From assembly GCA_963700285.1 (NCBI GenBank), contig CAVOXA010000010.1:608001-672000 (forward strand): 64,000 bases of DNA, in the 5' to 3' direction. The DNA is from an uncultured Chloroflexia bacterium (GTDB taxonomy: Bacteria > Chloroflexota > Anaerolineae > JAAYZQ01). Made by a program: the position numbers and the translations under genes. Under the pieces are notes generated by a model. That model saw only the letters and a program-made list of their open reading frames with translations. It did not search any database and was not told the origin of the DNA. This document shows, piece by piece, positions 11,932 to 35,008 of the stretch (positions are counted from its first letter, which is position 1; every line of letters begins with the position of its first letter).

Positions 11932-12074
11932 GTTCTTTCTTCCTTCTCCCTGTCTCTGTATCTCCCCTTCTTTGCCGGCCGCATCCGTCACAAAGAACTG
12001 GAACAACTCCGCCAACCCGGCAAGGCGCCGCCCCGGGTCCTTACCCACTGATGCCGTTGCGAACTGACGCTAGA

Positions 12075-13647
12075 TCATGGGACCAGCTCGATCTCGCTGG
12101 GCTGCCAGGTTTTGTCGAAGAATGGCTCCAGCGGGCCGTAGAGGCGCAGGAGCACGAACCAGCCCCTGCCGGGGATGGTCTGGATCCAGTTGCCGCGCGC
12201 CACGCCATCGGGCTGCTCGGGAGCAAAGTATACCGTCGTGGAGCCGTCGGCGTTGGGCTCGGCGGCGGGCGACGGATAGCTCTGGCTGCCGGCGCGCGGA
12301 TAGCGCTGCGGCGTGTCGAGCATGGAGCGCGTCTGGTTGTCGTAGAGCGTCAAGGACCAGAAGTTCGCCGCAGGAATGTCCTCCGGCAGCGTCACCTTGT
12401 AGGTCTTGGCCCCGTCAAAGTACGCCTTGTTCGCATCCACCGTGGCCATAAGATATTGCGAGCCGATTCCGCTCAGGAGCATGCCCTCGGCCGGGCTGAC
12501 CATGATGACGCCGTAATGGAAATTGGTTCGAGCATCCAGCATGCGGTAGCCGGTGGGCGGGAAGGTCTTGACGCCTTCGGGCGTGCGCACGCCGTCCTGG
12601 ACCGGCCCCTCGATCACCGGAGGCGGGGTCTCGAAATCGTAGCCGCTGATGGTCAGCGTCAGCGGCATCCAGGCCGAGCCGGGGTAATAGTACCAGCCCG
12701 GATCGCGAGGACTCATGAAGAGGCTGCGCGCGGTGGCGTTGGCGACCTCGACCGCTTCGGTGAGGATCCTCTTCATCCGGGCGTCGGGCGCAAAGGGCTG
12801 GCCCTTGACGATGCCGATGGCGGCGATGGAACCCATCAACTCGGGGTCCAGCGAGCCGGCCGGCTGCTGCTGCACGACCTCGTTGAGCATCTCGTAGTAG
12901 CTAAAGTCGTTGGGCGGGATGGTGTTCATCACCTTGCCGCTGACGTCGTGGAAGACGGTCTCGGGCGGCGGCGTGATCGATCCGAGTTGCAGCCTCGCCG
13001 CGCAGGAACGTGGCGAAGGACGTGCCGACCCCGCCGGCCTCGTAGGGATAGATCTTGAGGAGCTTGCGGATCTGCTCGGCCGCCGGCTTGGGATCGTTGT
13101 TCTCCAGGAACATGCGGCCAAACCACATGACGTACGTGGTCTCGGCTTGGGCGATGAAGAACCCGCCCTCCGGCAGCGGGCCGTCGTAGCCGGGCGGCAG
13201 AATCAGGTATTTCCCGCCCAGACCGCGATCGGGACCGGGCCCGCCAAGGTCGATCACCCAGCGGAACCAGTAGTCGTTGATGGCGCCGAGGTACTTGGGT
13301 GGTGCCTCCAGCACCATGGGGCCACCGGTGAGGTCGAGGAAACCACCGGTATAGACCGTGTCCGCGTTGGTCGTCAGGATCACCGACTTGGCGTCCATCA
13401 ACTCGGAGAAGATGAGGGCCTCGTTGTCCGCCACGCCGGCCTCGAGCCAGCCCTGGTGCATGGCGTGCATGCTGACGCCCTGTACGGCGTTGACGAACGC
13501 CTCGAAGGCGTGTGTAAAGTCCAGGTTGTCATAGACCCTATCGAGCGTCTCCTGGCTCGGCATGCCGTCGGTGAACTCCAGGGTGCCGATTCGGGACTCG
13601 AACTTGTCGGGTGTCGTGATCCTCGACGGATAGATCGGATGCTTCAT
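12075..13647 (-). CDS. DUF1254/DUF1214 protein (one frameshift near 12990)
   Basis: ORFs 12901-13647 (TNADTVY, GPDRGLGGKY) and 12075-13121 (FWSLTLYD, NWIQT, LRLYGP) join through a single-base shift; RBS AAGGAGG. Confidence 0.85.
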
Positions 13648-13796: not shown

Positions 13797-14177
13797 CTAT
13801 CCCTCTACCTCGAATGGTTCGGACCCTGCGTCTTCTTCTCCCTGCCCTCGCCTCTCTCCGGCGGCGATCTGGCGGATCTGGTTCAGTGTCAGCGATTGGG
13901 CTGCCCGCCCTGAAAGCAGCACCGCCTGGTTGTGCTCTGTGTCCAGGCCGACCATTAGCGGGGGCGGGTCCTTGACCAGCAGCGGCAGGACGTGGCTTTC
14001 ACTGGTGCCGGTCCGGTCGAAGATGAGCACATCGGGCGTATGCTCGAGCAGCCGCTGCCCGGCCTCTGCCCACGTCCTGGCCCGCTCTACTTGCACTCCT
14101 GGAACCTCAGCCAGGCCCGCGGCCACACCCGACAGCAACAACGACTGGCCGTACAGCAAAACCGTTCGCGCGCTCAT
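13797..14177 (-). CDS. Small receiver-like protein, cassette copy 1
   Basis: MSARTVLLYGQSLLLSGVAAGL...HTPDVLIFD, near-identical to 24313-24705; ATG lies 6 nt after TGCTATACC. Confidence 0.75.
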   Translation of the reverse strand: MSARTVLLYGQSLLLSGVAAGLAEVPGVQVERARTWAEAGQRLLEHTPDVLIFDRTGTSESHVLPLLVKDPPPLMVGLDTEHNQAVLLSGRAAQSLTLNQIRQIAAGERRGQGEEDAGSEPFEVEG

Positions 14178-14305
14178 GCTTTCGGTATAGCAGTTGACGA
14201 GGCGTTTGTAACCTACCCGCGGGGATAGAAAAAGGATAGTCTCGCCAGCCGTGAGACTATCCCTGGGGATAGGGAGGGATAGGGCCGACTTTTCCTGGGG
14301 ATGGG
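14178..14305 (-). promoter_or_regulatory. Extended -10 promoter plus operator array, copy 1
   Basis: Palindromes ctacccgcggggatag (14213-14228), ctatccctggggatag (14257-14272) and cttttcctggggatgg (14289-14304), plus GGATAG half-sites. Confidence 0.7.
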
Positions 14306-14439
14306 GGCAGAGGGGGTGACAGGGAGACACGGGGACACGGAGACGAACAGACGCGGAGGAGGTCTCCCTACGCCCGAGGCGCCCTGCCACTCTCTCCCAG
14401 TGTCTCTTTGTCTGAGTGTTACCCCATCGCTGCGCCCAT

Positions 14440-14540
14440 CCGCTGTGGTGGGCGTAGGTGACCACCTGCTCGCGGTCCTTGAGGTGCAGGCGTTGCAGCA
14501 CCTCGCCCATGTGATACTAGACTGTGTGCTCGCTCAACTG
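14440..14540 (-). pseudogene. 3' remnant of a LuxR/NarL HTH
   Basis: LSEHTV*YHMGEVLQRLHLKDREQVVTYA, matching the end of the 31069-31731 regulator. Confidence 0.8.
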
Positions 14541-14591
14541 GGGCCAAAGATCCTGAGATTCAGGCCTCTGTCTGATCAATTCTGATCCGCT

Positions 14592-14631
14592 ATCAGGTGC
14601 CCGGCACCCTGCCGGGTGCCGGGCACCTGAT
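14592..14631. terminator. Perfect 18-bp hairpin after the TSP3-like repeat gene
   Basis: ATCAGGTGCCCGGCACCC-TGCC-GGGTGCCGGGCACCTGAT starting 5 nt past the stop codon. There is no T-tract, so it could instead be a REP or RNA-stability hairpin. Confidence 0.55.
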
Positions 14632-14635
14632 GCAG

Positions 14636-19117
<4,482 letters not shown>

Positions 19118-19214
19118 CCTTTCCTCCTTTGTCTGTTGCTTCTTCCAAGTTCTGGGTCTGGTTAGGTCCTGCAGGCAAGTAGCGCTGGTTTTCTGGCCCC
19201 GAAAGGTGCCCTCC

Positions 19215-22200
19215 TTACTTCTTGGCTTTCACCTGGATATTGCCGCCCTCGATATCCAAGGGGGCAAGCAGGCTCCCCTTGCCATCATAGGTATTGCCCA
19301 ACTCGTAGTAGGTCCCAGTGACGTTCCAGACCCGGATCGCATACTGGTCTGGACTTGTAACCCGGGAGGAGCCGGGCTCCCCATTATCGGTGACGTCTAC
19401 CTGGAACTGGTAGTTGCCGCCGATGCTGTATAGCACGCCGGTCAGCCGGTCCACGGCCTGCACGGTGTTTTTGCCGGTGATGGTGGCCTTGCAGCCGCTC
19501 GTGGTCTTGTTCTCGCAGTCGTAGATGTTCAGGCCCTGCATGGCGTTGCTCTTGATGATCCAGTCATAGGCCCGCTCTCCCGCCGGCGCGTCCGGCAGGA
19601 TCGTGCTCAGGTCTGTGGTGACGCGGTAGACGAACAGGCTGTTGCCCTGGACCCGGCCCTTTTTCAGGAACTTGGCTGAAAGGCCAAAGTTGACGCGGCC
19701 GCTCGTGATCGGGTCGATCAACCAGCCCCCGCCGGCGGCCATCCCCGTGCCCGGGTCGTTCACCAGGACGATCACGGTCTCAAATTGGGCCGCATAGTAG
19801 GGATTGGCTACCAGGCTGACCTTCACCTGGTAGGGATCTGACGCGGGGAGGTCCACGGTGCAACTGCCATACCCCTTCCCGTTGGCGACGTTGCCTATTC
19901 CCGCCGTGCACCCGTCCAGGGGGGTGGCGTAAGTCGTGTCGCCGAAGCCAAAGACCTGGAACAGGACCTGCTGCCCAGCGAGCTGGTCGCCCAGCGAGCC
20001 GTCCTGGCGCTCCTCCAGCGTAGCAGCCAACGTCACCGTTGCCCTGGCTCGCTCCCTTGCGGTCGTGACCTGCGTGTCGCCGGTGTAGACTATCTCCGCG
20101 CCCTCCTTGATGAGCTGGAACAGGTCTGAGTCACTGCTGCCCAGGTAGAGAGCGTCCCCGACAAAGCTGGACGCCACAGCCAGCGCGCCGACTGGCTGGT
20201 CCAGCAGGATGCTGCCCTTGGCCAGGCCGTTGGCGTCGGTGGTCGCGGAGGTGGACTGCGTGCCGAGGGTGAAGCCGATGGTCTTGCTTGCGAGCGGTGC
20301 GCCCTGCAGGCTGCCGCCGCCGTGGTCGGTCAGTGTGGCCTGGACGGCGGTCGAATCGGAGTACTGCGTTGACGTACTGCCGCTGTAGACCAGGGCCGTG
20401 GGCCGCTTCTGCACCGTGATCGTGACGGCCTCCTGATCGCAGAGCGGGTCCGCGACGCCCCGCGTCGCGCCGTTGTCGCAGACCTTCACCGTGAGGTTGT
20501 GATCCCCGATCTGGCTTGAGGTAGGCGTCCAGGAGAAGGCGCCGCCCGTCGTAATACTGGCGCCGGTTGGGGCGCCCACCAGGCTGAAGGTCAGCGCGTT
20601 GGCCGGGCGGTCGGGGTCGCTCGCCGTGGCGGTGAACGCCAGCTCGTTGCCCCAGGTCGCCGTTTGGTCGCCGAGTGGGTCGAGGGCGGGTGGGCTGTTG
20701 ACCTCGTAGACGGTTACGACAATGGCCTCGCTGTCGCACAGCGGAGACGAGCCGTTGTCGCAGACCTTCACGGTGAAGGGGTAGGTGCCGGGCCCCTGGT
20801 CCTCCGCCGGTGTCCAGGAGAAGGCGCCGCCCGCCGTGATGCTGGCGCCGGCCGGGGCGCCCACCAGGCTGAAGGTCAGCGTGTTGGCCGGCAGGTCGGG
20901 GTCGGTGGCCGCCGCTGTGAAGGTCAACGCCGTCATCTCATCCACCGACCTGGAGCTGATGTCGCCGAGCACCGGCGCCCGGTTGACCTCGCGGACGGTG
21001 ACGGTGAGCCCTTCCTCGCCGCAGAGGGCTGGCGACCCGTTGTCACAGATCCTGACCTTGAAGCTGTAGTCGCCGGGCCCCTGGGCTTCGGTCGGCGTCC
21101 AGGAGAACTCGCCGTTGTCCGTGATGGTGGCGCCTGCCGGGGCGGCCACCAGGCTGAAGGCGCTCAGGGTGTTGGCCGCACCTGTCCCGCTGTCCGGGTC
21201 GCTCGCCGCCGCGGTAAAGGTCAGCGCGGTCATTTCATCCACGGACCTGTCGCTGATGGGGACAATGACCGGCGCCCGGTTGACCTCGGCCACGGCCACG
21301 GTGATCGCCTCCTCGTCGCACAGCGCAGGCGTCCCGCTGTCACAGACCTTGACGGTGAGGGGGTAGCCGCCGGCGCCCTGGGCTTCGGTCGGCGTCCAGG
21401 AAAAGGCCCCGCCCGCCGTGATGCTGGCCCCGGACGGGGCGCCCACCAGGCTGAAGGTCAGTGTGTTGGCCGCGCCCGTCCCGGTGTCCGGATCGGTCGC
21501 CATAGCGGTGAAGGCCAGCGCGGTCATCTCGTCCACGGTCTTGTCGCCGATGGCGTCGAGCACCGGCGCGCGGTTGACTTCGGTCACGGACACGGTGATC
21601 GTCTCCTCGTCACATAGGACAGGTGTGACATGGTCGCAGACCTTGACGGCGAAGGTATAGGTTCCGGCGCCCTGGGCTTCGGCCGGCGTCCAGGAGAAGC
21701 TGCCCCTCTCCGTGATGCTGGCGCCGGACGGGGCGCCCACCAGGCTGAAACTCAGTACGTTGTCGGGGTAGTCGGGATCGGTAGCTGTGGCCGTGAAGGT
21801 CAGCGCCGTCATCTCGGCCAACGACTTGTTGCCAATGGCGCCCAGCGCCGGGGCCTGGTTGACCTCGCGCACGGTCACGGTGATTTCTTCGCTGTTACAC
21901 CCGGTAGGATTCCCGTTGTCGCACACCCTGACCCTGAAGGTGTAGTCGCCGGGCCCCTGCTGCTCCGTCGGCGTCCAGGTGAAGGCGCCGCCCGCCGTGA
22001 TGCTCGCGCCGGCCGGGGCCTCCACCAGGCTAAAGGTAAGCGTGTTGGCGGCGCTGTCCGGATCGCTGGCCGTGGCCGTGAAGGTCAGCGCGGCCAGCTC
22101 GTTCACACCCTTGCCGCCGATGGCGCCCAGCACCGGGGCATCGTTGACGCAGGCCACCGCGATGCTCACCGTCGCCACATTGCTGTACAGCGCCCCATCA

Positions 22201-24210
22201 TACGCCTTGTAGGTGAACGAGTCGGAGCCGCAGTAGTTCGCCGCCGGGGTGTAGCTGAAGGAGCCATTGGCACTCAGCGTCACGCTCCCGTGCGCCGGGT
22301 TGGCGACCTTTGCCGCGGTCAGCGGGTTGCTCTCGGCATCGGTGTCGTTGGCCAACACGCCGGCGGCCGCGGCTACGCTCATCGGGGTGTCCTCCTTGCC
22401 GCTGCAGTCGTCGTTGTTGGCCACGGGGGCGGTGTTGCAGGCGTTGGCGATGGGGTTGCCGGTGAAGGCACCCTCGCCCCCGTAGGTTGCTCCGCAGTAG
22501 GCGTTGATCACGCCGCTGTTGTTGATCGTTCCCTCGTTGGCCAGCACGGCATAGTTTTCGATGACGCCCTGCGCGGTGTTGTCAATCGTGCCAGGGTAAG
22601 TGGAAGCCAACGGCATCTCAATATCCATGACCGCGAAGTGGGCCGTCGCCTGGCCAGCGGATCCGTTCACGATGGTGCCGGCGTTGGTCAAGGTGCCTCC
22701 CAGGACCCCGAAATCGTGGTCATTGTCCACCAGCCCGTTGTTGGTGAAGGCGCCGGCGCTGAACACCCCCTCATTGTGGACGGTCCCGTTGTTCACCAGT
22801 TCAGCTATATTGCTAAACGTGGCCCCAGATGCGACGTGGAGGGTCGTACCGGCGGGGATGGTAAGGTTGAGGGGAATTCCCGGCGGCTGCCCCGTGATCG
22901 TGCAGGTGCTGGACGCCGCTTCCCAGGCGCCGGGCAGCCACCCGCAGACGGTCTCATTCAGGAAGCAGGTCTTGTACTCGATGGGGGTGCCGCTGACGGT
23001 GCCGGTGCCCGTAACCATCGCTCCGCAGTAGCTGTAGATCGTGCCGCTGTTGGCTATCGTGCCGCTGTTGTCCAGATAGTAACGATGGTGGACCGTGCCG
23101 CTGTTGTTGAGCGTCCCCTGGTTGAGCAACCAGGCATAGTTGTGAAAGGCACCGCTCGCGGTGTTGTTGAAGGTGCCTGATTCGATTAGGAAGTGGGAGT
23201 CTGTCTGGCCAACGGCGCCATTGTTGATCGTGCCGGTGTTGGTGAAGGTGCCCCCCTCTGCTTGGACGGTTCCGTAGTTGGTCAGAACCCCGCTGTTGGT
23301 AAAGGTCCCGCCGTACCACGTCGGCCAGAGGGTGCCCTCTACGAGGATCGTCCCCAGGTTGACCAGGTCGACCTGATTTTGATTGCCCACCGTGGCGCCG
23401 GAAAGGATGTGGAGCGTGGCGCCGGCGGGGACGGTCAGGTCGAAGGGAACCAGATTGGTGCCACTGGCTACCGTGCAGGTACTGGACGCCGCGTCCCAGG
23501 TGCCGGATAACATGCTGCAGACGGTCGCATTCAGGTCGCAGGTCTCGTACTCGATGGCGTTGCCGGTGAACGTGCCGCCCTGCAGCATATAGGTCGCTCC
23601 GCAGTGGTTGCGGATCGTACCATCGTTGGTGATCGTCCCTTGGAGAGCCAGCATGGCATAGTTTTCAAAGACACCGGTCCCGGTGTTGTGAAGCGTGCCG
23701 CCGGCAGCGATCCCAATGCCCACATTTTCTGCGATCACGCCAGGGGCGCCGTTGTTGATCGTGCCCGAGTTGGTGAAGGTGCCCCCGTCCACACTGGTGA
23801 GCCCATGGTTGGTCAGAACCCCGCTGCTGCTGATGCTGAAGGTGCTGCTGAGGGTGCTGCTGGAGAACACGGCGAGGAAGGCGCCCTCAACGAGGATCGT
23901 CCCCTGGTTGACCAGGTCGGCCCCATTGATCACGCCTCCCGACGATGTGATGTGCAGCGTGGTACCGGCGGGGATGGTGAGGTCGGCTATAATCGGCACT
24001 GGCGAGGTTGGCGGAAAGGTATTCCTCCCCCTGCGTCACGGTACAGGTATTGGAGCCCTCGTTCCAAGTACCGGGTAGCGCTGCGCACGAGGTCGCATCA
24101 AGGGTCGTGGCTTGCGCCGAAACGGGTTCAGCCAGCGGTACGGCCGGGATTGCCAGCAACAGTCCTGCCAGTAGCAGACCAACCAACATGCATCGCCTTT
24201 GGTGCACCAT
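19215..24210 (-). CDS. Giant surface protein: three beta-helix modules, cadherin/Ig-like repeats, conserved C-terminal domain (frameshift near 24028)
   Basis: The signal-peptide ORF (MVHQRR..., ATG at 24210) joins the 1594-aa ORF after removing one G in a G5 run. Six NxAPxL...DPD...FSWTP...VKVCD repeats plus one NTAPVANND unit. Confidence 0.85.
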
Positions 24211-24312
24211 GTTCTTCTCTCCTTCTGGTTGTGGGTAGCTGACGTGCTTCATGATTTCATCCGTCTCACGAGGGATCTTGAACGGTTACGGATTGCCTTT
24301 CCGTCTTTCTCC

Positions 24313-24705
24313 CTACTTCGAGCGGTCCAGACCCTGCCGCTTTCTCCGCGTCTCTCCTTCTCCCTGTTCCCGCATCTCCCTCTCTCCGGCGACGATCTGG
24401 CGGATCTGGCCGAGTGTGAGCGATTGGGCTGCCCGCCCCGAAAGCAGCACCGCCTGGTTGTGCTCTGTGTCCAGGCCGACCATCAGCGGGTGCGGGTCCT
24501 TGAGCAGCAGCGGTAGGATGTGGCATTCACTGGTGCCGGTCAGGTCAAAGATGAGCACATCCGGCGTATGCTCGAGCAGCCGCTGCCCGGCATCTGCCCA
24601 CGTCCTGGCCTGCTCTACCTGCACTCCTGGAACCTCGGCCAGGCCCGCGGCCACACCCGACAGCAACAACGACTGGCCGTACAACAAAACCGTTCGCGCG
24701 TTCAT
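24313..24705 (-). CDS. Small receiver-like protein, cassette copy 2
   Basis: 130 aa MNARTVLLYGQSLLLSG...PDVLIFDL...PLMVGLD; ATG lies 6 nt after TGCTATACT. Confidence 0.8.
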   Translation of the reverse strand: MNARTVLLYGQSLLLSGVAAGLAEVPGVQVEQARTWADAGQRLLEHTPDVLIFDLTGTSECHILPLLLKDPHPLMVGLDTEHNQAVLLSGRAAQSLTLGQIRQIVAGEREMREQGEGETRRKRQGLDRSK

Positions 24706-24833
24706 GCTTTCAGTATAGCAGTTGGCGAGGCGTTTGTAACCTACCTGCGGGAATAGAAAAGGGATAGTCTCGCCAGCCGGGAGACTATCCCTGGGGATAG
24801 GGTGGGATAGGGCCGACTATTCGTGGGGATAGG
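24706..24833 (-). promoter_or_regulatory. Extended -10 promoter plus operator array, copy 2
   Basis: ctacctgcgggaatag (24741-24756), ctatccctggggatag (24785-24800), ctattcgtggggatag (24817-24832). Confidence 0.7.
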
Positions 24834-24951
24834 GGGAGAGGGAGTGACGGGGAGACACGGGGACAGGGAGACGAAAAGACGCGGAGAAGGTCTCCCTACG
24901 TCCGCGCAACCCGTCTCACTCTCCCCGCGTTTCTATCTGGGCGTCATCCCA

Positions 24952-25495
24952 TCACGGCGCCAAACCGCTGCGGCGGGCGTAGGCGACCACTTGCTCGCGG
25001 TTCTTCAGGTGCAGGCGTTGCAGGACCTCGCCCATGTGGTATCTGACGGTGTGCTCGCTCAAGTTGAGCGCAGCGCCGACCTCCTTGTAGCTCAGTATAT
25101 CGGCCACGAGGACAAGGATCTCGCGCTGGCGAGGGGTGAGCACGGGGGCCGGTAGTCCGCCGCGAAGGTCGGCGGCCGCCTGCTCGTCGAGCGCGGCAGC
25201 CTGCTGGGCAAACTCGCGCAGCAGGCGGGCGGAGAGCTCGCGGGATAGCTGCGCATCTCCCCGGGAAAGCCCGGCCAGGTAGTCGAACAGGTCGTTGGGC
25301 TCCAGGTTCTTCAGGAGATAGCCGGTGGCCCCGCTCTTGATGGCTTCAAACCGGTCGGCATCTTCCGCCGAAGTGGTGGGCATGACGATCTTGCACTCGG
25401 GCATCTCGGCCTGGATCAGTCGCGTGGCGGCCAGCCCGTCGCAATTCGGCATGCGGACGTCCATCAGGATCACATCCGGGTGCAGGGCGCGGGCC
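24952..25495 (-). pseudogene. 5'-truncated NarL-family response regulator copy
   Basis: ARALHPDVILMDVRMP...LTPRQREIL, near-identical to 31069-31731 but with the N-terminus replaced by an unrelated membrane-protein fragment (25500-25690). Confidence 0.85.
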
Positions 25496-26140
25496 ACGGT
25501 GCCCAGCAGCAGGTGGGCCGGTCGCAGGGCGAAACTCATGCCGCTGACCGGACCCGGCAGGGACAGCCCATAGCCCCACGGCGAGACCAGGCACTGAAAG
25601 GGATAGACAAAGTGGCTGTCATAATGCAGGTAGCCCTCCAGCAGGCGGGACACCTGGATCCAGTCCCGCTCCAACAGGGCCGGCGTCACCGTTGATAAAT
25701 GCCGATGCAGTTTGGCACTCGTCGGACCATCGGCACCGGCTCAGCACGAGTTCGAGGGAACTCTGGTCATCGGGCCGGGGATGATCCAGGTCGAGACTCT
25801 GCCGGACTCTGGCGGTGAACGCAGCCAGGACCCAGTGGAATTCTCTGTCGACGTTTTCACCTTCGAGGACTTTCTGGTGCGGGTGGAGCCCGGCACCCCG
25901 AATGAGGATCAGCCACCTGGAAGCTGGGATTTCGTCTTTTCTCCCGGTAGCGTGTGGTCAGAGCCCGCCGACGGCGGACCAGAGAGTATCTCTCATGGGA
26001 GGAGAGGCGCAGCGAACCTGGAGCCGTTCGCCTCGCGGGGCAGGGCCAGCGCTACCGCCAGGCCTGGCTCCCGCAGTTCCCTCTGGGCGGGCCTGAAGGA
26101 ACCGAAGGCGCTACTGTCGTGCACTCACACGGTACGCACA

Positions 26141-26173
26141 GAAACCCGGCCCCCTTTCGCAGCGCCGGGTTTC
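26141..26173 (-). terminator. Putative terminator
   Basis: GAAACCCGGC...GCCGGGTTTC inverted repeat about 30 nt after the stop of 26201-30412. Confidence 0.5.
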
Positions 26174-26200
26174 CTTCCATCTGGCGGCATCACCGCGCTG

Positions 26201-29200
26201 TTACTTCTTGGCTTTCACCTGGATGTTACCGGCCCCAATGTCCACGGGGCTGAGCAGCATCCCATGGTCATCGTAGCTATTGCCCAGCTCGTAGTAGGTA
26301 CCGCTGTTGTCCCAGATGCGGATGGCATACTGGTCCGGACCCGTCCCAGACGAGCCGGGCTCCTGGTTGTCAGTGACGTCCACCTGGAACTGGTAGTTGC
26401 CGCCGATGCTGTACAGCACACCGGTCAGGCGGTCGACGGCCTGGACCGTGGTCTTGCCGGTGATCGTAGCCTTGCAGCCGCTGGTGGTGGTTTTGTCGCA
26501 GTCGTAGATGTTTAGGCCTTGCATGGCGTTGCTCTTGATGATCCAGTCATACGCCCGCTCGCCGGCCGGCGCGTCCGGCACGATCGTGCTCAGGTCGGTG
26601 GTGACGCGGTAGACGAACAGGCTGTTGCCCTGGACCTTGCCTTTCTTCAGGAACTTGGCCGTGAAGCCAAAGTTGGCACGGGAGCCGCTATTGGGGTCGA
26701 TCAGCCAGCCGCCGCCGGCAGTCATCCCTGTCCCCGGGTCGTTGACCAGGACGATCATGGTCTCAAATTGGGCCGCATGGTAGGGATTGGTTACCAGGCT
26801 GATCTTCACCTGGTAGGGATCCGACGCAGGCAGGTCCACCGTGCAACTACCATACCCTTTGCCGCTAGCGATGTTGGTTATCTCTGCAGTGCACCCGGCC
26901 AGGGGCGTGGTGTAGGTCGTGTCGCCGAAGCCAAAGGCCTGGAACAGGACCTGCTGCCCGGCGAGCTGGTCGCCCAGCCAGCCGTCCTGCTCCTCCTCCA
27001 GGGTAGCGGCCAACGTCACCGTTGCCCTGGCTCCCTCCTTTGCCGTCGTGACCTGCGTGTCGCCGGTGTAGGTGATCTCGGCGCCTTCTTTGCTTACCGT
27101 GAACGTGCCCGCGACGTAGGTGATCTCATAGTTGGGGGCGACGCCGCCGGAACAGGTGATGGGGTAGGCACCGGCCGGGCTGAGGCGCTCACGGGTTGTC
27201 TGGCACGACGGCGCGGCGGTCAGGTACGGATTCGTCGGCCCCTCGCCCTCGATCCAACCACTGTACTGGAAGGCAAACGCGGGCGGGTTGGGTTCGGTGT
27301 AGTCCAGTTCCCAGTCGTCTGGCGTCACGGTCAGCGGTGCAGGCTCGATGGTCAGGGTACCGTTGGCCTTGGTCACGTTGTAGTTGGGGGTGGAGCCCAC
27401 GGCCACCACGATCGGATAGCTGCCCACGCCCGAATACTTGCCTGCCGTCGTGGACAAGTTGAAGCCGATGGCATCGCAACCCGACGCTTCGCCGATCACC
27501 GTCGCCGTCAGCTCCGGGTTGTCCTGGCCGTAGGTCTTGGTCTTGGCGTCCGCCGTGACCGAGGCAGCTTTCGTGTCGACCGTCAGCGTGGCGTTGGTCG
27601 TGGACACGTTGTAGTTGGGGTTGGCGCCCAACTCCACCACGATGGGATAGTCACTGGCGTTCGAGCACTTGACGGCTGTCGTGGACAGCGAGTAGTTGAC
27701 GCCCACTGAGCACACTGCGCCGGCCGCCGTTGCCGTCAGCACCGGGTTGTCGTCGCCGTAGGCCTTGCTCTTGTTCGCTGCGGTGACCGAGGCCGCCTTC
27801 TTGTTGACCGTCAGCGTGGCGTCGGTCGTGGACACGTTGTAGTTGGGGTTGGCGCCCAACTCCACCACGATGGGGTAGTCACCGGCGTTCGAGCACTTGA
27901 CGGCTGTCGTGGACAGCGAGTAGTCGATGCCCACAGAGCACACTGCGCCGGTAGCTGTGGCCGTCAGCGCCGGGTTGTCGTCGCCGTAGGTCTTGCTCTT
28001 GTTCGCCGCCGTGACCGAGGCCGCTTTCTTGTTGATCGCCAGCGTGCCGTTGGTCGTGGTCACGTTGTAGTTGGGGTTAGCGCCCAGTGTCACCGCAATC
28101 GGGTAGTCGCCAACGTCTGAGCATTCGACTGAAGTCGTGGACAGCGAGTAGTCGATGCCCACAGAGCACACTGCGCCGGTAGCTGTGGCCGTCAGCGCCG
28201 GGTTGTCGTCGCCGTAGGTCTTGCTCTTGTTCGCCGCCGTGACCGAGGCCGCTTTCTTGTTGATCGCCAGCGTGCCGTTGGTCGCGGTCACGTTGTAGTT
28301 GGGACTCGAGCCCAGCGTCACCAAGATCGGGTAGTCACCGACAGCCGAGCACTTGGTCGCCTCTGTCGACAGCGAGTAGCTGATGCTTGTAGAACACACC
28401 GCGCCAGCCGCCGTCGCCGTCAGCACCGGGTTGTCGTCGCCGTAGGCCTTGCTCTTGTTCGCCGCGGTGACCGAGGCCGCCTTCTTGTTGATCGCCAGCG
28501 TGGCGTCGGTCGTGGACACATTGTAGTTTGGGTTAGCGCCCAGTGTCACCGCAATCGGGTAGTCGCCAACGTCTGAGCATTTGACTGCCGTCGTGGACAG
28601 CGAGTAGTCGATGCCCACAGAGCACACTGCGCCGGTTGCCGTGGCCGTCAGCACCGGGTTGTCGTCGCCGTAGGCCTTGCTCTTGTTCGCCGCGGTGACC
28701 GAGGCCGCCTTCTTGTTGATAGTCAGGGTGCCGTTCGTCGTGGACACGTTGTAGTTGGGATTCGAGCCCAGCGTCACCACGATGGGGTACGAGCCGGCGT
28801 TCGAGCACTGGTTCGCTGCTGTCGACAGCGAGTAGTTGATGATGTCTCCACCCGCCGCCTGGCCGACCACCGTGGCCTTCAGGGCCGGGTTGTCCTGACC
28901 GAAGGTCTTGTAGGTGTCCACCGCCGTGACGGAGGCAGCTCTCTTATTGATGGTCAGTGTGCCGCTGGCGCTGCCCTGGTAGTTGGCCTCGTTGATCGTG
29001 GCCACCACAGCGTAGCTGCCAGCGTTGACCGGCGGCGCTGCCGAGCCGTTGTAGGTCACTTCTACTTTCAGGCCGGCCGGGTCGGTGGTAACCGTGACCG
29101 CTTTGGGCTGGCCGTCATAGGTCTGCGTGAGGTTGCCGAGTGTCACCGTGGCTGGCTGCAGACAGGCATTGACGATGGGGTTGCCGGTGAAGGTACCGCC

Positions 29201-30412
29201 CCCTGTGTAGCTGGCGCCGCAGTAGGCGTTGATCACACCGCTGTTGTCGACGGTGCCTGTATTGTTCAGCACCGCAGAGTTCTCGATGACACCGCCCGCG
29301 GTGTTGTGCAGCAGGCAGCTCGAACCGATCCCGAAGTAGTTTCGGTTGGTGATGGTACCGCTGTTGGTGAAGGTGCTGCCCTCATACAACTGGATCTGAT
29401 CATTGTTGATCACAACCCCGCTGTTGATGAAGGTCCCGGAACTCGAATCTGAGTAGAGGCTACTGTCATTGATGAGGGTCCCCGCGTTGATCAGCGTGCC
29501 CCAATTATCCATGGACGTGTTACTTCCGATGTGGAGCGTGGTGCCCACGGGGATCGTGAGCGTACTGTCTCTGCGGATCATAGCCCAGTCGACCAATATC
29601 GTGCACGTGCTCGACGCCGCGTCCCAGGCGCCGTTCAAGACCGTCCCACACGTGGCTCCATTCAGCTCATCGGGGGCGCACGCCACCACCTCAATGGCGT
29701 TGCCGGTGAAGGTACCGGTGCCCACATAGCTGGCGCCGCAGTGGGCGTTGATCACACCGCTGTTGTTGACAATCCCGCCGTTGTTCAGCACGGCGTAGTT
29801 CTCGACGACGCCGTCCGCGGTGTTGTTCAGCGTGCCGTTGGTAACGAACTGGAGCTCGCTCAGGTTACTGATCGTCCCCTCGTTCTTGATCGTTCCTGTG
29901 GTGTACAGCAAGGCATAGTTCTCGATGACGCCGCCCGCGGTGTTGTGCAGCAGGCAGCTCGAACCGATCCCGAAGTAGTTTCGGTTGGTGATTGTACCGC
30001 TGTTGGTGAAGGTGCTGCCCTCATACAACTGGATCTGATCATTGTTGATCACAACCCCGCTGTTGATGAAGGTCCCGGAGCTTGAATCTGAGTAGAGGCT
30101 ACTGTCATTGATGATGGTCCCCGCGTTGATCAGCGTGCCCCAATTATCCATGGACGTGTTACTTCCGATGTGGAGCGTGGTGCCCACGGGGATCGTGAGC
30201 GTCCTGTCCCTGCCGATCATGGCCCAGTCGACCGATATCGTACACGTGCTCGACGCCGCGTCCCAGGTGCCGTTCAAGACCGTCCCACACGTACTCGCAT
30301 CCAGGAGGTACTCGTCCGCCGATACCGGCGCAGCCAACGGGCCACCCAGGAGGGCCAACGCCAGTCCCAAGAACAACAGACCAACCCATATGCAGTGTCG
30401 TTGGTGCCTCAT
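26201..30412 (-). CDS. Giant surface protein: two beta-helix modules, MBG-like repeats, conserved C-terminal domain
   Basis: 1403 aa with signal peptide, duplicated ~200-aa head, ~8 ASVTAANKSKxYGDDNP...NYNVSTTNGTLTI repeats, and a C-terminus ending IQVKAKK like 19215-24210. Confidence 0.9.
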   Translation of the reverse strand: MRHQRHCIWVGLLFLGLALALLGGPLAAPVSADEYLLDASTCGTVLNGTWDAASSTCTISVDWAMIGRDRTLTIPVGTTLHIGSNTSMDNWGTLINAGTIINDSSLYSDSSSGTFINSGVVINNDQIQLYEGSTFTNSGTITNRNYFGIGSSCLLHNTAGGVIENYALLYTTGTIKNEGTISNLSELQFVTNGTLNNTADGVVENYAVLNNGGIVNNSGVINAHCGASYVGTGTFTGNAIEVVACAPDELNGATCGTVLNGAWDAASSTCTILVDWAMIRRDSTLTIPVGTTLHIGSNTSMDNWGTLINAGTLINDSSLYSDSSSGTFINSGVVINNDQIQLYEGSTFTNSGTITNRNYFGIGSSCLLHNTAGGVIENSAVLNNTGTVDNSGVINAYCGASYTGGGTFTGNPIVNACLQPATVTLGNLTQTYDGQPKAVTVTTDPAGLKVEVTYNGSAAPPVNAGSYAVVATINEANYQGSASGTLTINKRAASVTAVDTYKTFGQDNPALKATVVGQAAGGDIINYSLSTAANQCSNAGSYPIVVTLGSNPNYNVSTTNGTLTINKKAASVTAANKSKAYGDDNPVLTATATGAVCSVGIDYSLSTTAVKCSDVGDYPIAVTLGANPNYNVSTTDATLAINKKAASVTAANKSKAYGDDNPVLTATAAGAVCSTSISYSLSTEATKCSAVGDYPILVTLGSSPNYNVTATNGTLAINKKAASVTAANKSKTYGDDNPALTATATGAVCSVGIDYSLSTTSVECSDVGDYPIAVTLGANPNYNVTTTNGTLAINKKAASVTAANKSKTYGDDNPALTATATGAVCSVGIDYSLSTTAVKCSNAGDYPIVVELGANPNYNVSTTDATLTVNKKAASVTAANKSKAYGDDNPVLTATAAGAVCSVGVNYSLSTTAVKCSNASDYPIVVELGANPNYNVSTTNATLTVDTKAASVTADAKTKTYGQDNPELTATVIGEASGCDAIGFNLSTTAGKYSGVGSYPIVVAVGSTPNYNVTKANGTLTIEPAPLTVTPDDWELDYTEPNPPAFAFQYSGWIEGEGPTNPYLTAAPSCQTTRERLSPAGAYPITCSGGVAPNYEITYVAGTFTVSKEGAEITYTGDTQVTTAKEGARATVTLAATLEEEQDGWLGDQLAGQQVLFQAFGFGDTTYTTPLAGCTAEITNIASGKGYGSCTVDLPASDPYQVKISLVTNPYHAAQFETMIVLVNDPGTGMTAGGGWLIDPNSGSRANFGFTAKFLKKGKVQGNSLFVYRVTTDLSTIVPDAPAGERAYDWIIKSNAMQGLNIYDCDKTTTSGCKATITGKTTVQAVDRLTGVLYSIGGNYQFQVDVTDNQEPGSSGTGPDQYAIRIWDNSGTYYELGNSYDDHGMLLSPVDIGAGNIQVKAKK

Positions 30413-30455
30413 CTTCTTCTCCCCTTTCCTGGCAGGAAGCGCGGCCTTCTTTTCC

Positions 30456-30842
30456 CTACTTTGCGCGGCGCAATGCCTGCCGCCTTCTGCCCATCGTTCC
30501 TTTTCCCCGTGGCTCCCTCTGTCCGGTAGCGACCTGCCGCATCTGTTTGAGTGCCAGCGACTGAGCCTCCCGCCCCGAAAGCACCACCGCCTGGTTCTGC
30601 CCGCTGTCCAGGCCGATCATTGTCGGGTGCGGGTTTTCCAGCAGCAAGGGCAGGACGTGGCTTTCGCAGCTGCCCTTCAGATCGAAGATCAGAACATCAG
30701 GCATGTGCTCGGCCAGCATCCGGCCGGCATCAGCCTAAGTCCTGGCCCGTGCCACCTGCAGACCCGGCACCTCGGCCCGTGCTGCGGCCACACCCGACAG
30801 CAATCGCGATTGCCCGTACAACAAGACCCTTCGCGCGTTCAT
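30456..30842 (-). pseudogene. Small receiver-like protein, cassette copy 3 (nonsense codon)
   Basis: MNARRVLLYGQSRLLSG...ARART*ADAG: TAG at 30735-30737 where the other two copies have Trp. Confidence 0.75.
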
Positions 30843-30970
30843 AGTTGCAGTATAGCAGCTGGCGGCGGGTTTGTAACCTCCCTGCGGGGACAGAAAAAGG
30901 ATAGTCTCGCTATCCGGGAGACTATCCCTGGGGATAGGGAGGGATAGGGTCGACTATTCCTGGGGATAGG
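30843..30970 (-). promoter_or_regulatory. Extended -10 promoter plus operator array, copy 3
   Basis: TGCTATACT 6 nt before ATG; ctccctgcggggacag (30878-30893), ctatccctggggatag (30922-30937), ctattcctggggatag (30954-30969). Confidence 0.7.
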
Positions 30971-31068
30971 GGCAGAGGGGGTGACGGGGGAGACAGGGGG
31001 ACACGGAGACGAAAAGACGCGGAGAAGGTCTCTCACTCCCCGCGTCTTCTTAGCCGGGCGTCATCCCA

Positions 31069-31731
31069 TCACCGCGTCAATCCGCTGCGGCGGGCGTAGG
31101 CGACTACTTGCTCGCGGTTTTTGAGGTGCAGGCGCTGCAGGACCTCGCCCATGTGATACTTGATCGTGTGCTCGCTCAGGTTCAGCGCCGTCCCGATTTC
31201 TTTGTAGGTCAATCCATCGGCCACGAGGACGAGGATCTCGCGCTGGCGAGGGGTGAGCTCGGGGGCCGGTGGTCCGCCGCGCAGGCCGGCGGCCGCATGC
31301 TCATCGAGCGCGGCTGCCTGCTGGGCAAACTCGCGCAGCAGGCGGGCGGAAAGCTCGCGGGACAGCGGCGCCTCTCCCCGGGCGAGCCCGGAGAGATAGT
31401 CGAACAACTCGTTGGGCTCCAGGTTCTTCAGGAGATAGCCGCTGGCCCCGCTCTTGATCGCTTCGAACAGGTCGGCGTCCTCCGCCGAAGTGGTCAGCAT
31501 CACGATCTTGCACTCGGGCATCTCGGCCTGGATCAGTCGCGTGGCGGCCAGCCCGTCGCAATTCGGCATGCGGACGTCCATCAGGATCACGTCCGGGTGC
31601 AGGGCTCTGGCCAACTGGAGGCCCTCCAGGCCATCGTGGGCGGCGCCGACCACCTGGTACCCGCCGGCACGGAGCAGGTTCTGCAAGCCCTCCAGGAAGA
31701 GGCTGTGGTCATCTACCAGCAGGATCTTTAT
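31069..31731 (-). CDS. NarL/LuxR-family DNA-binding response regulator
   Basis: KILLVDDH...DVILMDVRMP...GASGYLLK...LTPRQREIL...LSEHTIKYH. The apparent start codon is ATA, overlapping the kinase stop. Confidence 0.9.
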   Translation of the reverse strand: MKILLVDDHSLFLEGLQNLLRAGGYQVVGAAHDGLEGLQLARALHPDVILMDVRMPNCDGLAATRLIQAEMPECKIVMLTTSAEDADLFEAIKSGASGYLLKNLEPNELFDYLSGLARGEAPLSRELSARLLREFAQQAAALDEHAAAGLRGGPPAPELTPRQREILVLVADGLTYKEIGTALNLSEHTIKYHMGEVLQRLHLKNREQVVAYARRSGLTR

Positions 31732-33437
31732 GATGTCCCTCCCATGTTCCCGTCCAGCCGCACGCGCACCTCCACCAGGGTGCCCTGGCCGGGTGACGAA
31801 TGCACGGTTAGTTGCCCGCCGATGCGCTGGGCGCGCTGGCGCATGACCTGTAGCCCAAAATGCTGGCCGCCCGGGCCTGCCAAGGCCGGGTCAAAGCCGG
31901 CGCCGTTGTCCACGATCGCCATTTGCAACTGGCCGTCACCGGCCCCCATCCGCACACCGACCTGGCTGGGCGATCCGGCGTGCTTGCGCACGTTGGCCAG
32001 CGCCTCCTGGAGGATACGCAGCAACTGCACCCCGGTGGCCGGGGGCAGGGCCTCGGATCTGCAAACGGCATCCAGATCATCGGCAAGCTCCAGGCTGACG
32101 GGCAGGCCGGTCTGCTCCTCGAAATGGGCTACAGCCCGGCGCAGCACGCCGCACAGGCCCTCGGAGGGCAGGCTGACGATGAGCAGGTTGTCGATGAGCG
32201 CGCGCGTGTCCCCCTGCATCTCCAGGGCAACTCTTGCCAGGCGATCCAGGCTGTCCCGGGCCGCTTCGCCCTGTCCCGACTGGAGATAGAGACCGGCGGC
32301 CTGGGCTTGCAGGTTGAGGAAGCCCAGGTTCTGAGCAAGCCCGTCGTGCAGCTCCTGGGCCAGCAACTCGCGCTCCTGCAGGGTGGCCTGGACCCACTGC
32401 TGTTCCAGGAGCTTGGCCTGCGCCCGGCGTTGTTCGGTCACGTCGCGCATCAGGAGCAGGTGGCCGGTGGTCAGCCCGCGGTGGTCCTGGAGCCGGGAGA
32501 GGGCCAGCGCGTAGCGCCGGGCCTCAGCGCCCGGCCCCAGGCTGATCTCGACAGGACCGGCCGCTGGCTCGAGACACCGGCCGGGATCGGGGCAGGCAGG
32601 CAAGAGTTCGGACCATGCCTTGCCCCGGGCGCGCGTGGACGATATGCCCAGGATGCGTTCCGTGGCCGCGTTCAGGCTGAGGGCCTGCCAGCGCGTGTCA
32701 AACACGACCATCCCATCCTGCATCTGTTCGATGGCGGTACGGCGCGCAGCCGGCAGGGGGTCAAGGATGTGGAAGCCAAAGAGGGCGACGGCATAGGCCC
32801 CGGTGGTAAGCCCTATGCTGAGGATGACAGGATCGGGCTGGATTGAACCATGTCCGGCAGCGAGATCCACCGCGTAGAGTGCCCGGCTGACAAGCTGGCC
32901 GCCCACCATCAGGGTTACCGGCCAGCGGTGCTGGGGGGAACGGATGAACAGCCAGGCAAAGGCGGTGAGGTTGACCATGACCAGGGCTATGCCGTAGGCG
33001 TTCGTGATCCAGTTCAGCGCGCCACGCGTTGGCTGCACGGAACCGCCAACCGAGAACGCGGGCCAGTACCAGTGGGTGAGATCGTTGGTGAGCACCAGCA
33101 GCAGAACCAGGAACGGAGGAATGGAGAGCAGGATCAAGGTACGGCGGGTCAACCAGCGGCCGGGACTGACATACTCCAGGGCGAAGCACGTGGTGGCAGT
33201 GACGGTGGGCATCTTCCATACCGCCTGGAACTTGAACCAGGCAATCTTGGCTGAAGGATCGGTAGCCAATAGCTCACCGACCGCGCCAACCACCCATAGC
33301 GCCTGAAAGAGGCAGGCGGCGATGAGAGGGCGCGCGCCAGGCACGTCGCCTCGCCGCCAGCTAAACCAGGCCAGGGCGGCCAGCAAACCCAACGTGACAA
33401 GATATGGCCAGATGGTAGCCAAAGAGCTTGGGTTCAT
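31728..33437 (-). CDS. Sensor histidine kinase (N-terminal 7TM, PAS, HisKA_3, HATPase)
   Basis: Seven hydrophobic segments, ERELLAQELHDGLAQ, QEALANVRKHA, DNGAGFD, HFGLQVMRQRA. Confidence 0.93.
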   Translation of the reverse strand: MNPSSLATIWPYLVTLGLLAALAWFSWRRGDVPGARPLIAACLFQALWVVGAVGELLATDPSAKIAWFKFQAVWKMPTVTATTCFALEYVSPGRWLTRRTLILLSIPPFLVLLLVLTNDLTHWYWPAFSVGGSVQPTRGALNWITNAYGIALVMVNLTAFAWLFIRSPQHRWPVTLMVGGQLVSRALYAVDLAAGHGSIQPDPVILSIGLTTGAYAVALFGFHILDPLPAARRTAIEQMQDGMVVFDTRWQALSLNAATERILGISSTRARGKAWSELLPACPDPGRCLEPAAGPVEISLGPGAEARRYALALSRLQDHRGLTTGHLLLMRDVTEQRRAQAKLLEQQWVQATLQERELLAQELHDGLAQNLGFLNLQAQAAGLYLQSGQGEAARDSLDRLARVALEMQGDTRALIDNLLIVSLPSEGLCGVLRRAVAHFEEQTGLPVSLELADDLDAVCRSEALPPATGVQLLRILQEALANVRKHAGSPSQVGVRMGAGDGQLQMAIVDNGAGFDPALAGPGGQHFGLQVMRQRAQRIGGQLTVHSSPGQGTLVEVRVRLDGNMGGTS

Positions 33438-33461
33438 TCTCAGATCCTTCAGCCAGGATTA

Positions 33462-33490
33462 ACTATACCTCACTGCGAGACCAGTGTCAA
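33462..33490 (-). promoter_or_regulatory. Sigma-70 promoter of the kinase
   Basis: TTGACA-17-TATAGT. Confidence 0.65.
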
Positions 33491-33534: not shown

Positions 33535-34160
33535 TCAGTGCATACGCGCACAGTCCTCCTCGATCAGGCTCTCGTCCAGGTTCCTGAACCGCCTCGCCGG
33601 CGGACGCGATGCCTGGCGCGCTGATAGCTCGCTCGGTGCCCCGACGCCCCGGCCACGCTGCGGCCGCAAGCCAGCGCCCGGAGGGCTCCGTTCCCCGCCG
33701 AGGTGGGCCTCCTCCTGGCACTCGACCACCAGGCCTGCCCAGAGGGAACCGAGGGGGCCGCGCGGAACTTGCAGGCGACGAAGAGGTCGCGGGCAGTCTG
33801 GAATCGCGCTTCCACCCTCTCCAGGAGCGCCCGATCCTCGGCGTCCAGGCTCTTCACTGAGAAAGGCGAAGGGGTGCCCGAGCCGGGCACCTTGCCAGCC
33901 AAGCGTTTGTAGGCGAAGCTCACCATGCGGTTCGCCAGGTTGCCCCAGGCTTCGGCGCGAGCTCAGCCGAGCGTTTGCCAGCAGCTCGTTGTTGTTCCGC
34001 TCCACGAAATCCTCCCAGGATGACCCTTCGGCGCCCTCAGAGGGGCTTTGGTGTCGCGCGTCTCGGGTGCGGTGGCGGCCAGGCAGAAGCGCAGTGGCTC
34101 GGGATCATACTTGCCCAGAAAGTAGGGCACATCCACGGCAGCCCCCTAGCTCCTGCTGAG
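33535..34160 (-). pseudogene. Decayed copy of the metG 3' region
   Basis: Segments [47 protein letters not shown] and LDESLIEED match metG at 42681-43420, with indels. Confidence 0.8.
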
Positions 34161-34271
34161 CTTGCCATCTTTGAAGTTGAGGGATTCTCAGACACAGGGT
34201 GCAAGATCCCTTCGCTCTGACAGCGCGGGCAACAAGCGCAGAGGTTTGAGTAAAGGACCTCTTTCTCAGCT

Positions 34272-34837: not shown

Positions 34838-34847
34838 ACTATCCCTC

Positions 34848-34900: not shown

Positions 34901-35008
34901 ATGAGTCTGTGGCCGGGTACAGACTGTCAAATCGCCTCTCAGCGGCAATGAGGACAAAGAGTCGGGACGCGTATCCCGGCTCCCGAATCCTGACTCGCGG
35001 CTTCCCGC

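Follow-up and report, generated by a model that had tools for sequence, protein, structure and literature searches.

A tandem triplication of a NarL-type two-component cassette preceding giant exported proteins in an uncultured Chloroflexia bacterium

We have analyzed a window of 64,000 nucleotides of DNA from an uncultured Chloroflexia bacterium (genome G000). All features described here lie on the reverse (-) strand. A match to a sigma-70-type promoter (33462..33490; TTGACA-17-TATAGT, 11/12 of the consensus) precedes a gene for a sensor kinase of 569 amino acids (31728..33437), to which a domain search gave the architecture HisKA_7TM-PAS-HisKA_3-HATPase. The conserved His of the kinase is invariant in 38 homologues. 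The next gene (31069..31731) has an ATA start that overlaps the kinase stop, and encodes a full-length NarL-type regulator (regulator 1) with a receiver (REC) domain and a GerE helix-turn-helix (HTH), its helix reading SEHTIKYHM. The receiver has the acidic pair, Asp, Thr and Lys, with D7, D8, D52 and K102 invariant in 46 alignment rows. The overlapping genes and conserved gene order indicate that the kinase likely phosphorylates regulator 1.

Behind regulator 1 lies the first operator and promoter (30849..30969), with 7-2-7 inverted-repeat sites at 30969-30954, 30937-30922 and 30893-30878, a hairpin and T-run at 30927-30899, a -35 element at 30877 and an extended -10 at 30854-30849. It is followed by a small pseudo-receiver gene (30456..30842) and by cargo 1 (26201..30412), a signal-peptide protein of 1403 amino acids with MBG repeats. 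The second copy begins with a remnant, regulator 2 (24952..25496), in which the 5′ part, encoding the first ~43 residues, has been swapped for unrelated sequence to which the remnant is fused; it also carries L83P and a K to R change in the helix. Its operator and promoter (24712..24832) have sites at 24832-24817, 24800-24785 and 24756-24741, a hairpin at 24790-24762, a -35 at 24740 and a -10 at 24717-24712. An intact small gene of 130 amino acids, predicted to be leaderless (24313..24705), precedes an Ig/cadherin-repeat protein (cargo 2a, 19215..24226) and a signal-peptide protein of 1493 amino acids with 33-residue Cys/Asp-rich TSP3-like repeats (cargo 2b, 14636..19117). In the third copy only the last ~35 HTH codons of a regulator remain (14400..14537, the lower coordinate being approximate). 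The operator and promoter (14184..14304) have sites at 14304-14289, 14272-14257 and 14228-14213, a hairpin at 14262-14234, a -35 at 14212 and a -10, TATACC, that has lost its last T. An intact small gene of 126 amino acids (13797..14177) is followed by a frameshift-split DUF1254/DUF1214 gene (cargo 3a, 12075..13647) and a collapsed, frameshifted paralogue of the Ig gene (cargo 3b, 9985..11947), whose 3′ end is cut at 9985 by a transposase remnant.

The initial annotation had described a unit of regulator or remnant, promoter and small gene occurring three times, with the kinase in the first copy only, the regulator increasingly truncated and the cargo different in each. Alignment of the window with itself by BLAST bears this out, pairing 24301-25496 with 30445-31613 (83% identity), 13831-14537 with 24353-25062 (88%) and 13851-14536 with 30516-31178 (78%). 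The kinase is the sole one at the locus, and the domain search found tandem MBG_2/MBG_3, Big_9/cadherin/He_PIG, TSP_3 and DUF1254+DUF1214 domains in the respective cargoes. A search of the whole genome detected promoter and small gene at these three places only. At the threshold used, a second NarL pair elsewhere in the genome (C5) has no small gene, nor does a fourth weak hit (C15).

What was duplicated? The MBG, Ig and collapsed genes are paralogues, with a common signal peptide and N-terminus (the MBG and Ig proteins are 42% identical in their N-regions) and a C-terminus of ~300 amino acids at 26291-27082, 19305-20109 and 9985-10779. Since these genes share both ends, the repeated unit is 6-10 kb. 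Judging from these repeats, the whole unit of regulator, promoter, small gene and giant gene has been duplicated here, and afterwards trimmed and remodelled. The suggestion that a portable promoter module had been duplicated is thus not supported locally. Satellite promoter modules do recur in other genomes. In one of these (G793) a block of 493 bp with 94% identity carries a regulator remnant and is followed by MBG cargo and then Ig cargo; G077, G789 and G160 have similar layouts. Here, a cassette of wide distribution has been expanded locally by tandem triplication. The triplication itself is ordinary duplication, and it is the cassette that is the notable part.

Could the three copies have been created by assembly, through joining of strains or duplication of reads? 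The assembly is prone to indels and has 6.5% contamination; in no sequencing run were more than 15% of the query words present, and no junction-spanning read was found. Against this, the copies are 77-94% identical in pairwise comparison, a difference of 6-23%, their junctions are distinct, copy-2-specific pieces occur in another run with 0-1 differences, and G793 shows the same layout. We consider an artefact very improbable.

The condition of the locus raises a different question, whether the cassette functions in relatives and is here a decaying relic, its start codon lost, its duplicates pseudogenes and its regulation gone. Regulator 1 starts with ATA (31731-31729) where the seven close relatives compared have ATG, and codon 36 of the first small gene is TAG in the assembly where related contigs read TGG; these changes may have silenced the system in this genome. 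The signal peptide of the Ig gene lies in another frame (near 24030), the DUF1254/DUF1214 gene and the third paralogue are frameshifted, a transposase has inserted and two regulators are truncated. However, frameshifts affect 41 of 155 G000 orthologues of genes of the same-genus genome G001, and 4 of 17 on this contig. The point lesions may therefore be errors of an indel-prone assembly; against this background we do not take them as proof of decay. The corresponding count of stops (30/155) was left unused because some query open reading frames may be on the wrong strand. Three reading frames of 4.2-4.8 kb and the kinase remain open. Copy 2 and the genes for the Ig and MBG proteins are matched, with 0-1 differences, by small contigs from an RNA library; this evidence is weak, and the library may contain DNA. 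The promoter block is conserved as originally noted: the operator elements are identical at 71 of 76 positions, compared with 28 of 47 adjoining four-fold synonymous sites. A relic is therefore improbable, if less so than an artefact.

The operator is built from the heptamer CTATCCC. A perfect 7-2-7 inverted repeat is present in 3/3 copies, and there are three to five phased sites per cassette promoter. If transcription starts at the ATG, as we assume, the sites are centred at -43.5, -87.5 and -119.5. The proximal site abuts the -35 and has 2-4 mismatches in its right half. The half-sites are spaced by 2 in 21 of 34 loci, with any other spacing in at most two loci. The full module was found at three places in G000, all at this locus. 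A genome-wide regulon was considered and rejected: 23 hits were obtained with a loose palindrome but just three with the full module. Several strong small-gene hits in other genomes have no recognizable operator, and an Rfam search with the cassette gave no match.

Two of the half-sites, arranged head to head, build the hairpin with its T-run (-16.6 to -18.8 kcal/mol). The inner stem is paired in 111/136 cells, compared with 72.8 ± 4.7 on shuffling; 0/5000 shuffles reached 111, in a control that ignores the relatedness of the loci. With a GC-rich hairpin, a U-run and compensatory changes in the inner stem, the element has the sequence characteristics of an intrinsic terminator, and a simple terminator scan flagged the hairpin of copy 1 only. 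The palindrome might then be a terminator and nothing else, standing before a constitutive promoter, with its match to the regulator due to shared ancestry; the independent pairs supporting covariation between operator and regulator are indeed few. Yet the half-site variant of each locus recurs outside the hairpin, with 11-bp phasing and 7-2-7 geometry, and three loci (L073, L095, L132) keep intact half-sites despite weak inner stems. The -35 of the cassette is poor (GTTACA). Moreover, the operator bases track two residues of the recognition helix that are three apart, the spacing of the base-contacting Lys179 and Lys182 of DosR (PMC4082495). On this evidence we regard the terminator-only explanation as highly unlikely.

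The covariation between the two helix residues and two operator bases follows one rule in 41/41 loci, and in 16/16 held-out loci, one of whose regulators (L165) is identical to a training regulator (L089). Independent pairs on starred branches obey it in 4/4 and 2/2 cases (6/6 together), with cross-controls near zero; the rule was found post hoc, and neither the four nor the two pairs reach p<0.05 alone. By this rule the helix of regulator 1 fits all three local operators. Since the operator matches its helix, and does so only at these three places, regulator 1 likely drives all three promoters. The earlier proposal of one two-component system over three promoters is thus supported as likely, by operator uniqueness, helix match and element conservation.

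The small-gene profile matches 93 of 401 genomes of the class, and the cassette order is 7TM-PAS-HisKA_3 kinase, NarL regulator, operator and promoter, stand-alone pseudo-receiver and exported cargo. Gene order was counted around 69 strong small-gene hits, the denominators being loci with room for the neighbor in question. A regulator adjoins the small gene in 48/61 (13/61 have none adjacent), a HisKA_3 kinase is present in 38/51 and a 7TM sensor in 28/50. The first downstream open reading frame has a hydrophobic N-terminus in 48/62 loci, against a baseline of 44/346 reading frames of G001, and at least 1000 amino acids in 23/45, against 5/346. G001 itself (90% complete) gave no cassette match with the queries used; G373 has eight strong copies. 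Scans of loci with single proteins returned 4 and 5 loci. The cassette is thus found across many Anaerolineae-related genomes, and cargo is exchanged in other genomes as well. A gene 86% identical to cargo 3a is the second cargo of locus L067 in G252. The term adhesin regulon is too narrow, as proteins with an FGE-sulfatase domain, cupredoxins, solute-binding proteins and Wzz proteins are among the cargo elsewhere. Signal peptides were judged by eye and hydropathy. No wall or surface anchor family in the cargo was matched in Pfam or NCBIfam, and the shared C-terminus has a post-COAP-1-like match below cut-off. Any role of the cargo proteins in adhesion is putative.

The small protein found no family in Pfam or NCBIfam and nothing in Foldseek at E≤0.001 with its model, and an Atlas search gave unnamed Chloroflexota clusters only, at ≥0.9. 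There are ~780 unannotated pseudo-receiver clusters at E≤1e-10. The model nevertheless has a receiver fold (Z 11.4, rmsd 2.8, 95 residues aligned), with helix 4 absent, and the protein is homologous to the REC of the cassette regulator (93.9%). Position D54, which aligns with the regulator's phosphoacceptor Asp, is D in 41/45 sequences and E in 4/45. The acidic pair is replaced by Y/F-G (G in 45/45), the Thr position is Asp in 36/45, and the Lys is absent, so that a CheY-like Thr/Ser and Lys are both lacking. With these residues the protein is probably not phosphorylatable. It occurs in stand-alone form; longer fused forms were not found at E≤1e-12, which is weak evidence. The alignments contain no conserved cysteines, and thus no 4-Cys motif. 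None of the best 150 homologues has an HTH motif and 15 have C-terminal hydrophobic segments, which suggests action at the membrane.

How might such a protein act? By analogy with FixT it may be a brake on the kinase, a reading that we put forward tentatively. A predicted complex of it with the kinase core dimer scored 0.00, which speaks neither way. Alternatively, the small protein could target the regulator, as an inactive heterodimer or HTH cap, or aid translation or export of the cargo, all else being unchanged. This would suit its derivation from the regulator's own REC, of which it keeps helix 1, the overlap of its stop codon with the cargo start in 13/62 loci, and a homologue (P0220) that runs directly into a cargo-like protein. 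The membrane-anchored homologues fit a membrane partner better, and since the small protein is kept before unrelated cargo types, a cargo-specific chaperone is disfavored. We consider this alternative a little less likely than the brake on the kinase, to which we would give somewhat less than even odds.

The best explanation of the locus, to which we would give a probability of about 0.7, is that one sensor kinase and one full-length regulator serve the three promoters of a tandem cassette triplication. The membrane kinase would phosphorylate the single full-length regulator, which would bind the phased 7-2-7 sites and activate all three promoters. Each transcript would carry the small pseudo-receiver first and exported cargo after it, and the hairpin with its T-run would end the upstream transcript, so that read-through does not reach the cargo. 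As the regulator stop is directly followed by operator, promoter and small gene, a duplicate that has lost its kinase and regulator may remain under the control of copy 1, and the cargo behind it would be open to remodelling or replacement. In the weakest step, the small protein, once induced, would restrain its own kinase, much as FixT restrains FixL. More speculatively, and with odds somewhat below even, the cassette may be a plug-and-play device of the Anaerolineae, comprising a 7TM kinase, a regulator with a two-residue/two-base code, a leaderless pseudo-receiver brake and an operator array with a second role as upstream terminator; promoter and brake together could be copied as a satellite. 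If so, the code would insulate paralogues within one cell, as among the eight copies of G373, and giant surface proteins could be recruited to the regulon, or swapped within it, in one step.

Bacteria of the Anaerolineae are common in sediments and digesters, where they are associated with filaments and flocs, and to our knowledge little is known of their gene regulation. For the largest exported proteins of the group, the cassette defines kinase, regulator, operator and target. It also supplies naturally occurring pairs of regulator and operator, where two bases can be predicted from two residues; orthogonal NarL-type pairs could serve as synthetic switches. The local triplication illustrates regulon growth by satellites. 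A literature search, with subscription journals and supplements outside its scope, found no description of this cassette.

Its parts do resemble known systems. The cargo, with signal peptides and tandem repeats, is like repetitive MBG, Ig/cadherin and TSP3 surface proteins, but differs in matching no known wall-anchor family and in its shared C-terminus. DosR of DosS/DosR controls a global regulon, whereas the operator here is found at three adjacent promoters only in G000. The covarying helix residues, which we take to correspond to DosR Lys179 and Lys182, share their three-residue spacing. Those lysines contact bases (PMC4082495). FixT of the FixL-FixJ-FixT systems of Caulobacter and Sinorhizobium is a stand-alone receiver induced by its own two-component system; its phosphorylation is not detectable and it inhibits the kinase (PMC7078487). 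The small protein, too, stands alone and is predicted from the operator to be under its own two-component system. Kinase class and phylum differ, the four-cysteine Fe-S motif of Caulobacter FixT is absent, and the small gene stands first in the cargo operon and moves together with its promoter. NarX/NarL is similar in its HisKA_3 kinase and REC-GerE regulator. The operator is like that of NarL class II promoters, with 7-2-7 repeats and a proximal site just upstream of the -35; NarL sites are centred at -43.5 at yeaR (PMC10853779) and at -44.5 and -77.5 at ogt (PMC10853779, PMC7419079). The cassette differs in its 7TM-PAS sensor, its heptamer CTATCCC and its three to five phased sites, whose half-sites also build a terminator-like hairpin. 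The target operon is the regulator's immediate downstream neighbor and starts with a pseudo-receiver, and paralogues of the cassette switch helix and operator in pairs.

Comparison of the window with itself bears out the thrice-repeated block proposed in the initial annotation: 24301-25496 (copy 2) matches 30445-31613 (copy 1) at 83%, and 13831-14537 (copy 3) matches 24353-25062 at 88%. Across the assembly (7.05 Mb in 22 contigs), the promoter with its small gene was found in these three places only. The kinase reads HisKA_7TM-PAS-HisKA_3-HATPase and regulator 1 is REC-GerE, and a domain search agrees with the earlier reading of the cargo. The progressive truncation of the regulator is also seen, since regulator 2, in which L83P is present, has lost ~43 residues from its N-terminus and is joined to unrelated DNA, while regulator 3 is a short tail only. 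In the TSP3-like gene of copy 2, ~26 tandem 99-bp repeats (14954-17563, minus strand) encode a Cys/Asp-rich 33-residue unit, likely a calcium-binding stalk.

What was duplicated is larger than the portable promoter module first suggested. The promoter and small gene are indeed repeated, but the MBG, Ig and collapsed genes have in common a signal-peptide region and a C-terminus of 300 residues (83-87% nucleotide identity), and the N-regions of the MBG and Ig proteins are 42% identical. As the giant genes match at both ends, the unit was regulator, promoter, small gene and giant gene; its regulator end was later trimmed, the repeats were remodelled, and a TSP3-like and a DUF1254 gene joined it. 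Small genes 2 and 3 agree at 93.5%, and each agrees with the small gene of copy 1 at 77%, while the figure for regulators 1 and 2 is 90%; copy 3 thus derives from copy 2, and copy 1 or copy 2 may be a mosaic.

Several lesions interrupt the locus. Codon 36 of small gene 1 is TAG and the start codon of regulator 1 is ATA, where related contigs have TGG and ATG (ATG in 7/7 close regulators compared); frameshifts affect both the Ig and the DUF1254 gene, and at the Ig-gene break one related contig has two extra letters. These changes are indistinguishable from assembly error, because 41 of 155 orthologues common to this genome and a same-genus genome (155 of 219 query ORFs passing filters) are frameshifted here, 4 of 17 on this contig. 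If the stop is real, the intact small genes 2 and 3 could compensate. As structural changes, the truncations and the transposase insertion are genuine provided that the contig is correctly joined; a DDE transposase remnant (9300-9990, minus) cuts the third cargo paralogue and has a 98.7% copy on another contig.

Just upstream of the kinase lies an RHH antitoxin with a PemK/MazF toxin (34272-34957, minus), next to WD40 and methionyl-tRNA-synthetase-like fragments, of which 33545-34166 and 35013-35131 resemble 42685-43428; this suggests an integration scar. A group II intron (44484-46271, minus; RT/maturase ORF 44556-45962, Rfam domain matches) directly precedes pieces of methionyl-tRNA synthetase (43339-44334 and 42681-43127), and may interrupt metG. 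Elsewhere in the window, a 646-aa protein (5760-7700, minus) carries, over residues 333-453, the ligand-binding domain of neurotransmitter-gated ion channels, and is likely a pentameric channel of prokaryotic type with an extended N-terminus; a 913-aa multi-cytochrome c protein with internal repeats (49691-52432, plus) adjoins an EB_dh-like gene.

The suggested Chloroflexota search found the association widely. Close homologues of the small protein number 102, and 779 clusters match it at E<=1e-10; its named relatives are Anaerolineales and Chloroflexota, on which the class assignment for the window rests. Its profile matches 93 of 401 class genomes (E<=1e-5, 11 candidates scored per genome, with a weak tail that may include other receivers) and 8 of 401 phylum genomes (E<=1e-12), 6 of these outside the class. 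Neighbourhoods were read around the best matches, part of the total. Among 69 strong matches, in which kin do not count as independent, the gene immediately upstream is a NarL regulator in 48 of the 61 with room; a HisKA_3 kinase is present in 38/51 and a 7TM sensor in 28/50. The ORF that follows encodes a hydrophobic N-terminus in 48/62 (44/346 in control DNA of the same-genus genome) and reaches at least 1000 aa in 23/45 (control 5/346). Cargo elsewhere is varied (laminin G/TSP3, NHL/Big_13, PKD/PMP, collagen, FGE-sulfatase, cupredoxin, solute-binding, Wzz), and 16 of 40 gave no Pfam match at 1e-8. Among 37 weaker matches the regulator adjoins in 29, and 7TM sensors (3/33) and giant cargo (2/29) are rare. 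Read by eye, distant pseudo-receivers at six loci (L123, L124, L125, L127, L136, L150) follow other NarL subtypes, which have palindromes of their own, and are succeeded by cargo of lipoprotein, Tat or redox appearance. A full cassette occurs in a 1.85-Mb genome of another class (G471, L139:4572-12720), with a 2090-aa cargo whose C-terminal region shows 30% with that of the window cargo; this suggests transfer or old age.

Satellite copies are not peculiar to this genome. In G793 a complete unit (kinase, regulator, promoter, small gene, 2789-aa MBG/RCC1 cargo) has a satellite 9 kb further on: 89 bp of what was a regulator, then promoter and small gene again (493 bp, 94% identical), then an Ig cargo of 1570 aa. 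G077, G789 and G160 contain related modules, either detached or duplicated; for several orphan small genes no recognisable operator was found. The two-component system is of an ordinary kind, and our search of open-access articles found no description of the package.

Every copy carries predicted CTATCCC-NN-GGGATAG sites centred at -119.5, -87.5 and -43.5 and, in addition, half-sites at -97.5 and -54.5 (the ATG being taken as +1), followed by GTTACA-17-TGnTATAC(T/C) with the ATG six bases past the -10. A -10-like hexamer stands 6 bases before the ATG in 7 of the 9 close relatives compared and 7 bases in one (by eye), from which a leaderless small-gene transcript is likely. The two-base half-site spacing recurs in 21 of 34 loci, any other spacing in at most 2. 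Copies 1 and 2 agree at 71/76 element bases, 43/54 other promoter bases and 28/47 four-fold sites in the small gene; copies 2 and 3, which are young, lack this contrast (69/76, 51/54 and 55/62). The right half of the -87.5 site faces the -54.5 half-site across 13 bases, a predicted hairpin of -16.6 to -18.8 kcal/mol followed by a T-run. Across 34 loci its four inner stem pairs vary in sequence and are paired in 111 of 136 cells, as against 72.8 ± 4.7 in 5000 shuffles that did not keep relatedness among loci. The element likely serves twice, ending the upstream transcript as RNA and binding the regulator as DNA.

The operator covaries with the regulator. A full regulator is present at 77 loci; in 46 of these the recognition helix is of the (K/R)(Y/F)H(M/I) class, and a half-site was mechanically called in 41. 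An Arg three residues ahead of the K/R is matched by G at base 5 (24/24) and any other residue there by A (17/17); where the K/R position itself is Arg, base 8 is G (8/8), and where it is Lys, base 8 is C or T (33/33). This rule was framed post hoc and then tried on 42 new loci, from new genomes of four of the five family searches: the regulator was present in 28 of 44 matches, 17 in the helix class and 16 called, and all 16 obeyed both parts; one of them duplicates a row of the training set. In a 57-row tree that leaves out the helix, the two traits change 6 and 3 times; on starred branches every independent pair runs in the same direction (4/4 and 2/2, neither significant alone), with cross-controls near 0. 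Other helices (KSHM, KNHL, KYHV) accompany other palindromes, by eye. From the His and Lys of regulator 1 the rule predicts A5 and C8, bases that all three promoters have; regulator 2, with Arg at the second position, is mismatched to its own promoter under the rule. The covarying positions presumably correspond to the base-contacting residues of DosR. These are Lys179, Lys182 and Asn183 (PMC4082495).

The small protein is modelled (pLDDT 78) as a receiver fold minus helix 4, and its family aligns with the cassette regulator's own REC (93.9%). The acceptor Asp is kept; loss of the acidic pair, Thr and Lys makes its phosphorylation unlikely. Hydrophobic C-terminal segments occur in 15 of the best 150 homologues; P0124, P0138, P0157, P0189, P0202, P0219 and others are fused to a conserved two-helix membrane hairpin, and P0220 continues into a cargo-like protein.

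Two known systems offer comparison. NarL binds 7-2-7 sites at -43.5 in yeaR and at -44.5 and -77.5 in ogt (PMC10853779, PMC7419079); the cassette shares the 7-2-7 form, with its proximal site at -43.5 if +1 is the ATG. The small protein might instead act on the regulator or on cargo expression, but we favour, at roughly two chances in five, a brake resembling FixT. That protein, as described in PMC7078487, consists of a single receiver, is induced by FixLJ and inhibits FixL although it is not itself phosphorylated; the small protein is likewise a single receiver, and one unlikely to be phosphorylated.
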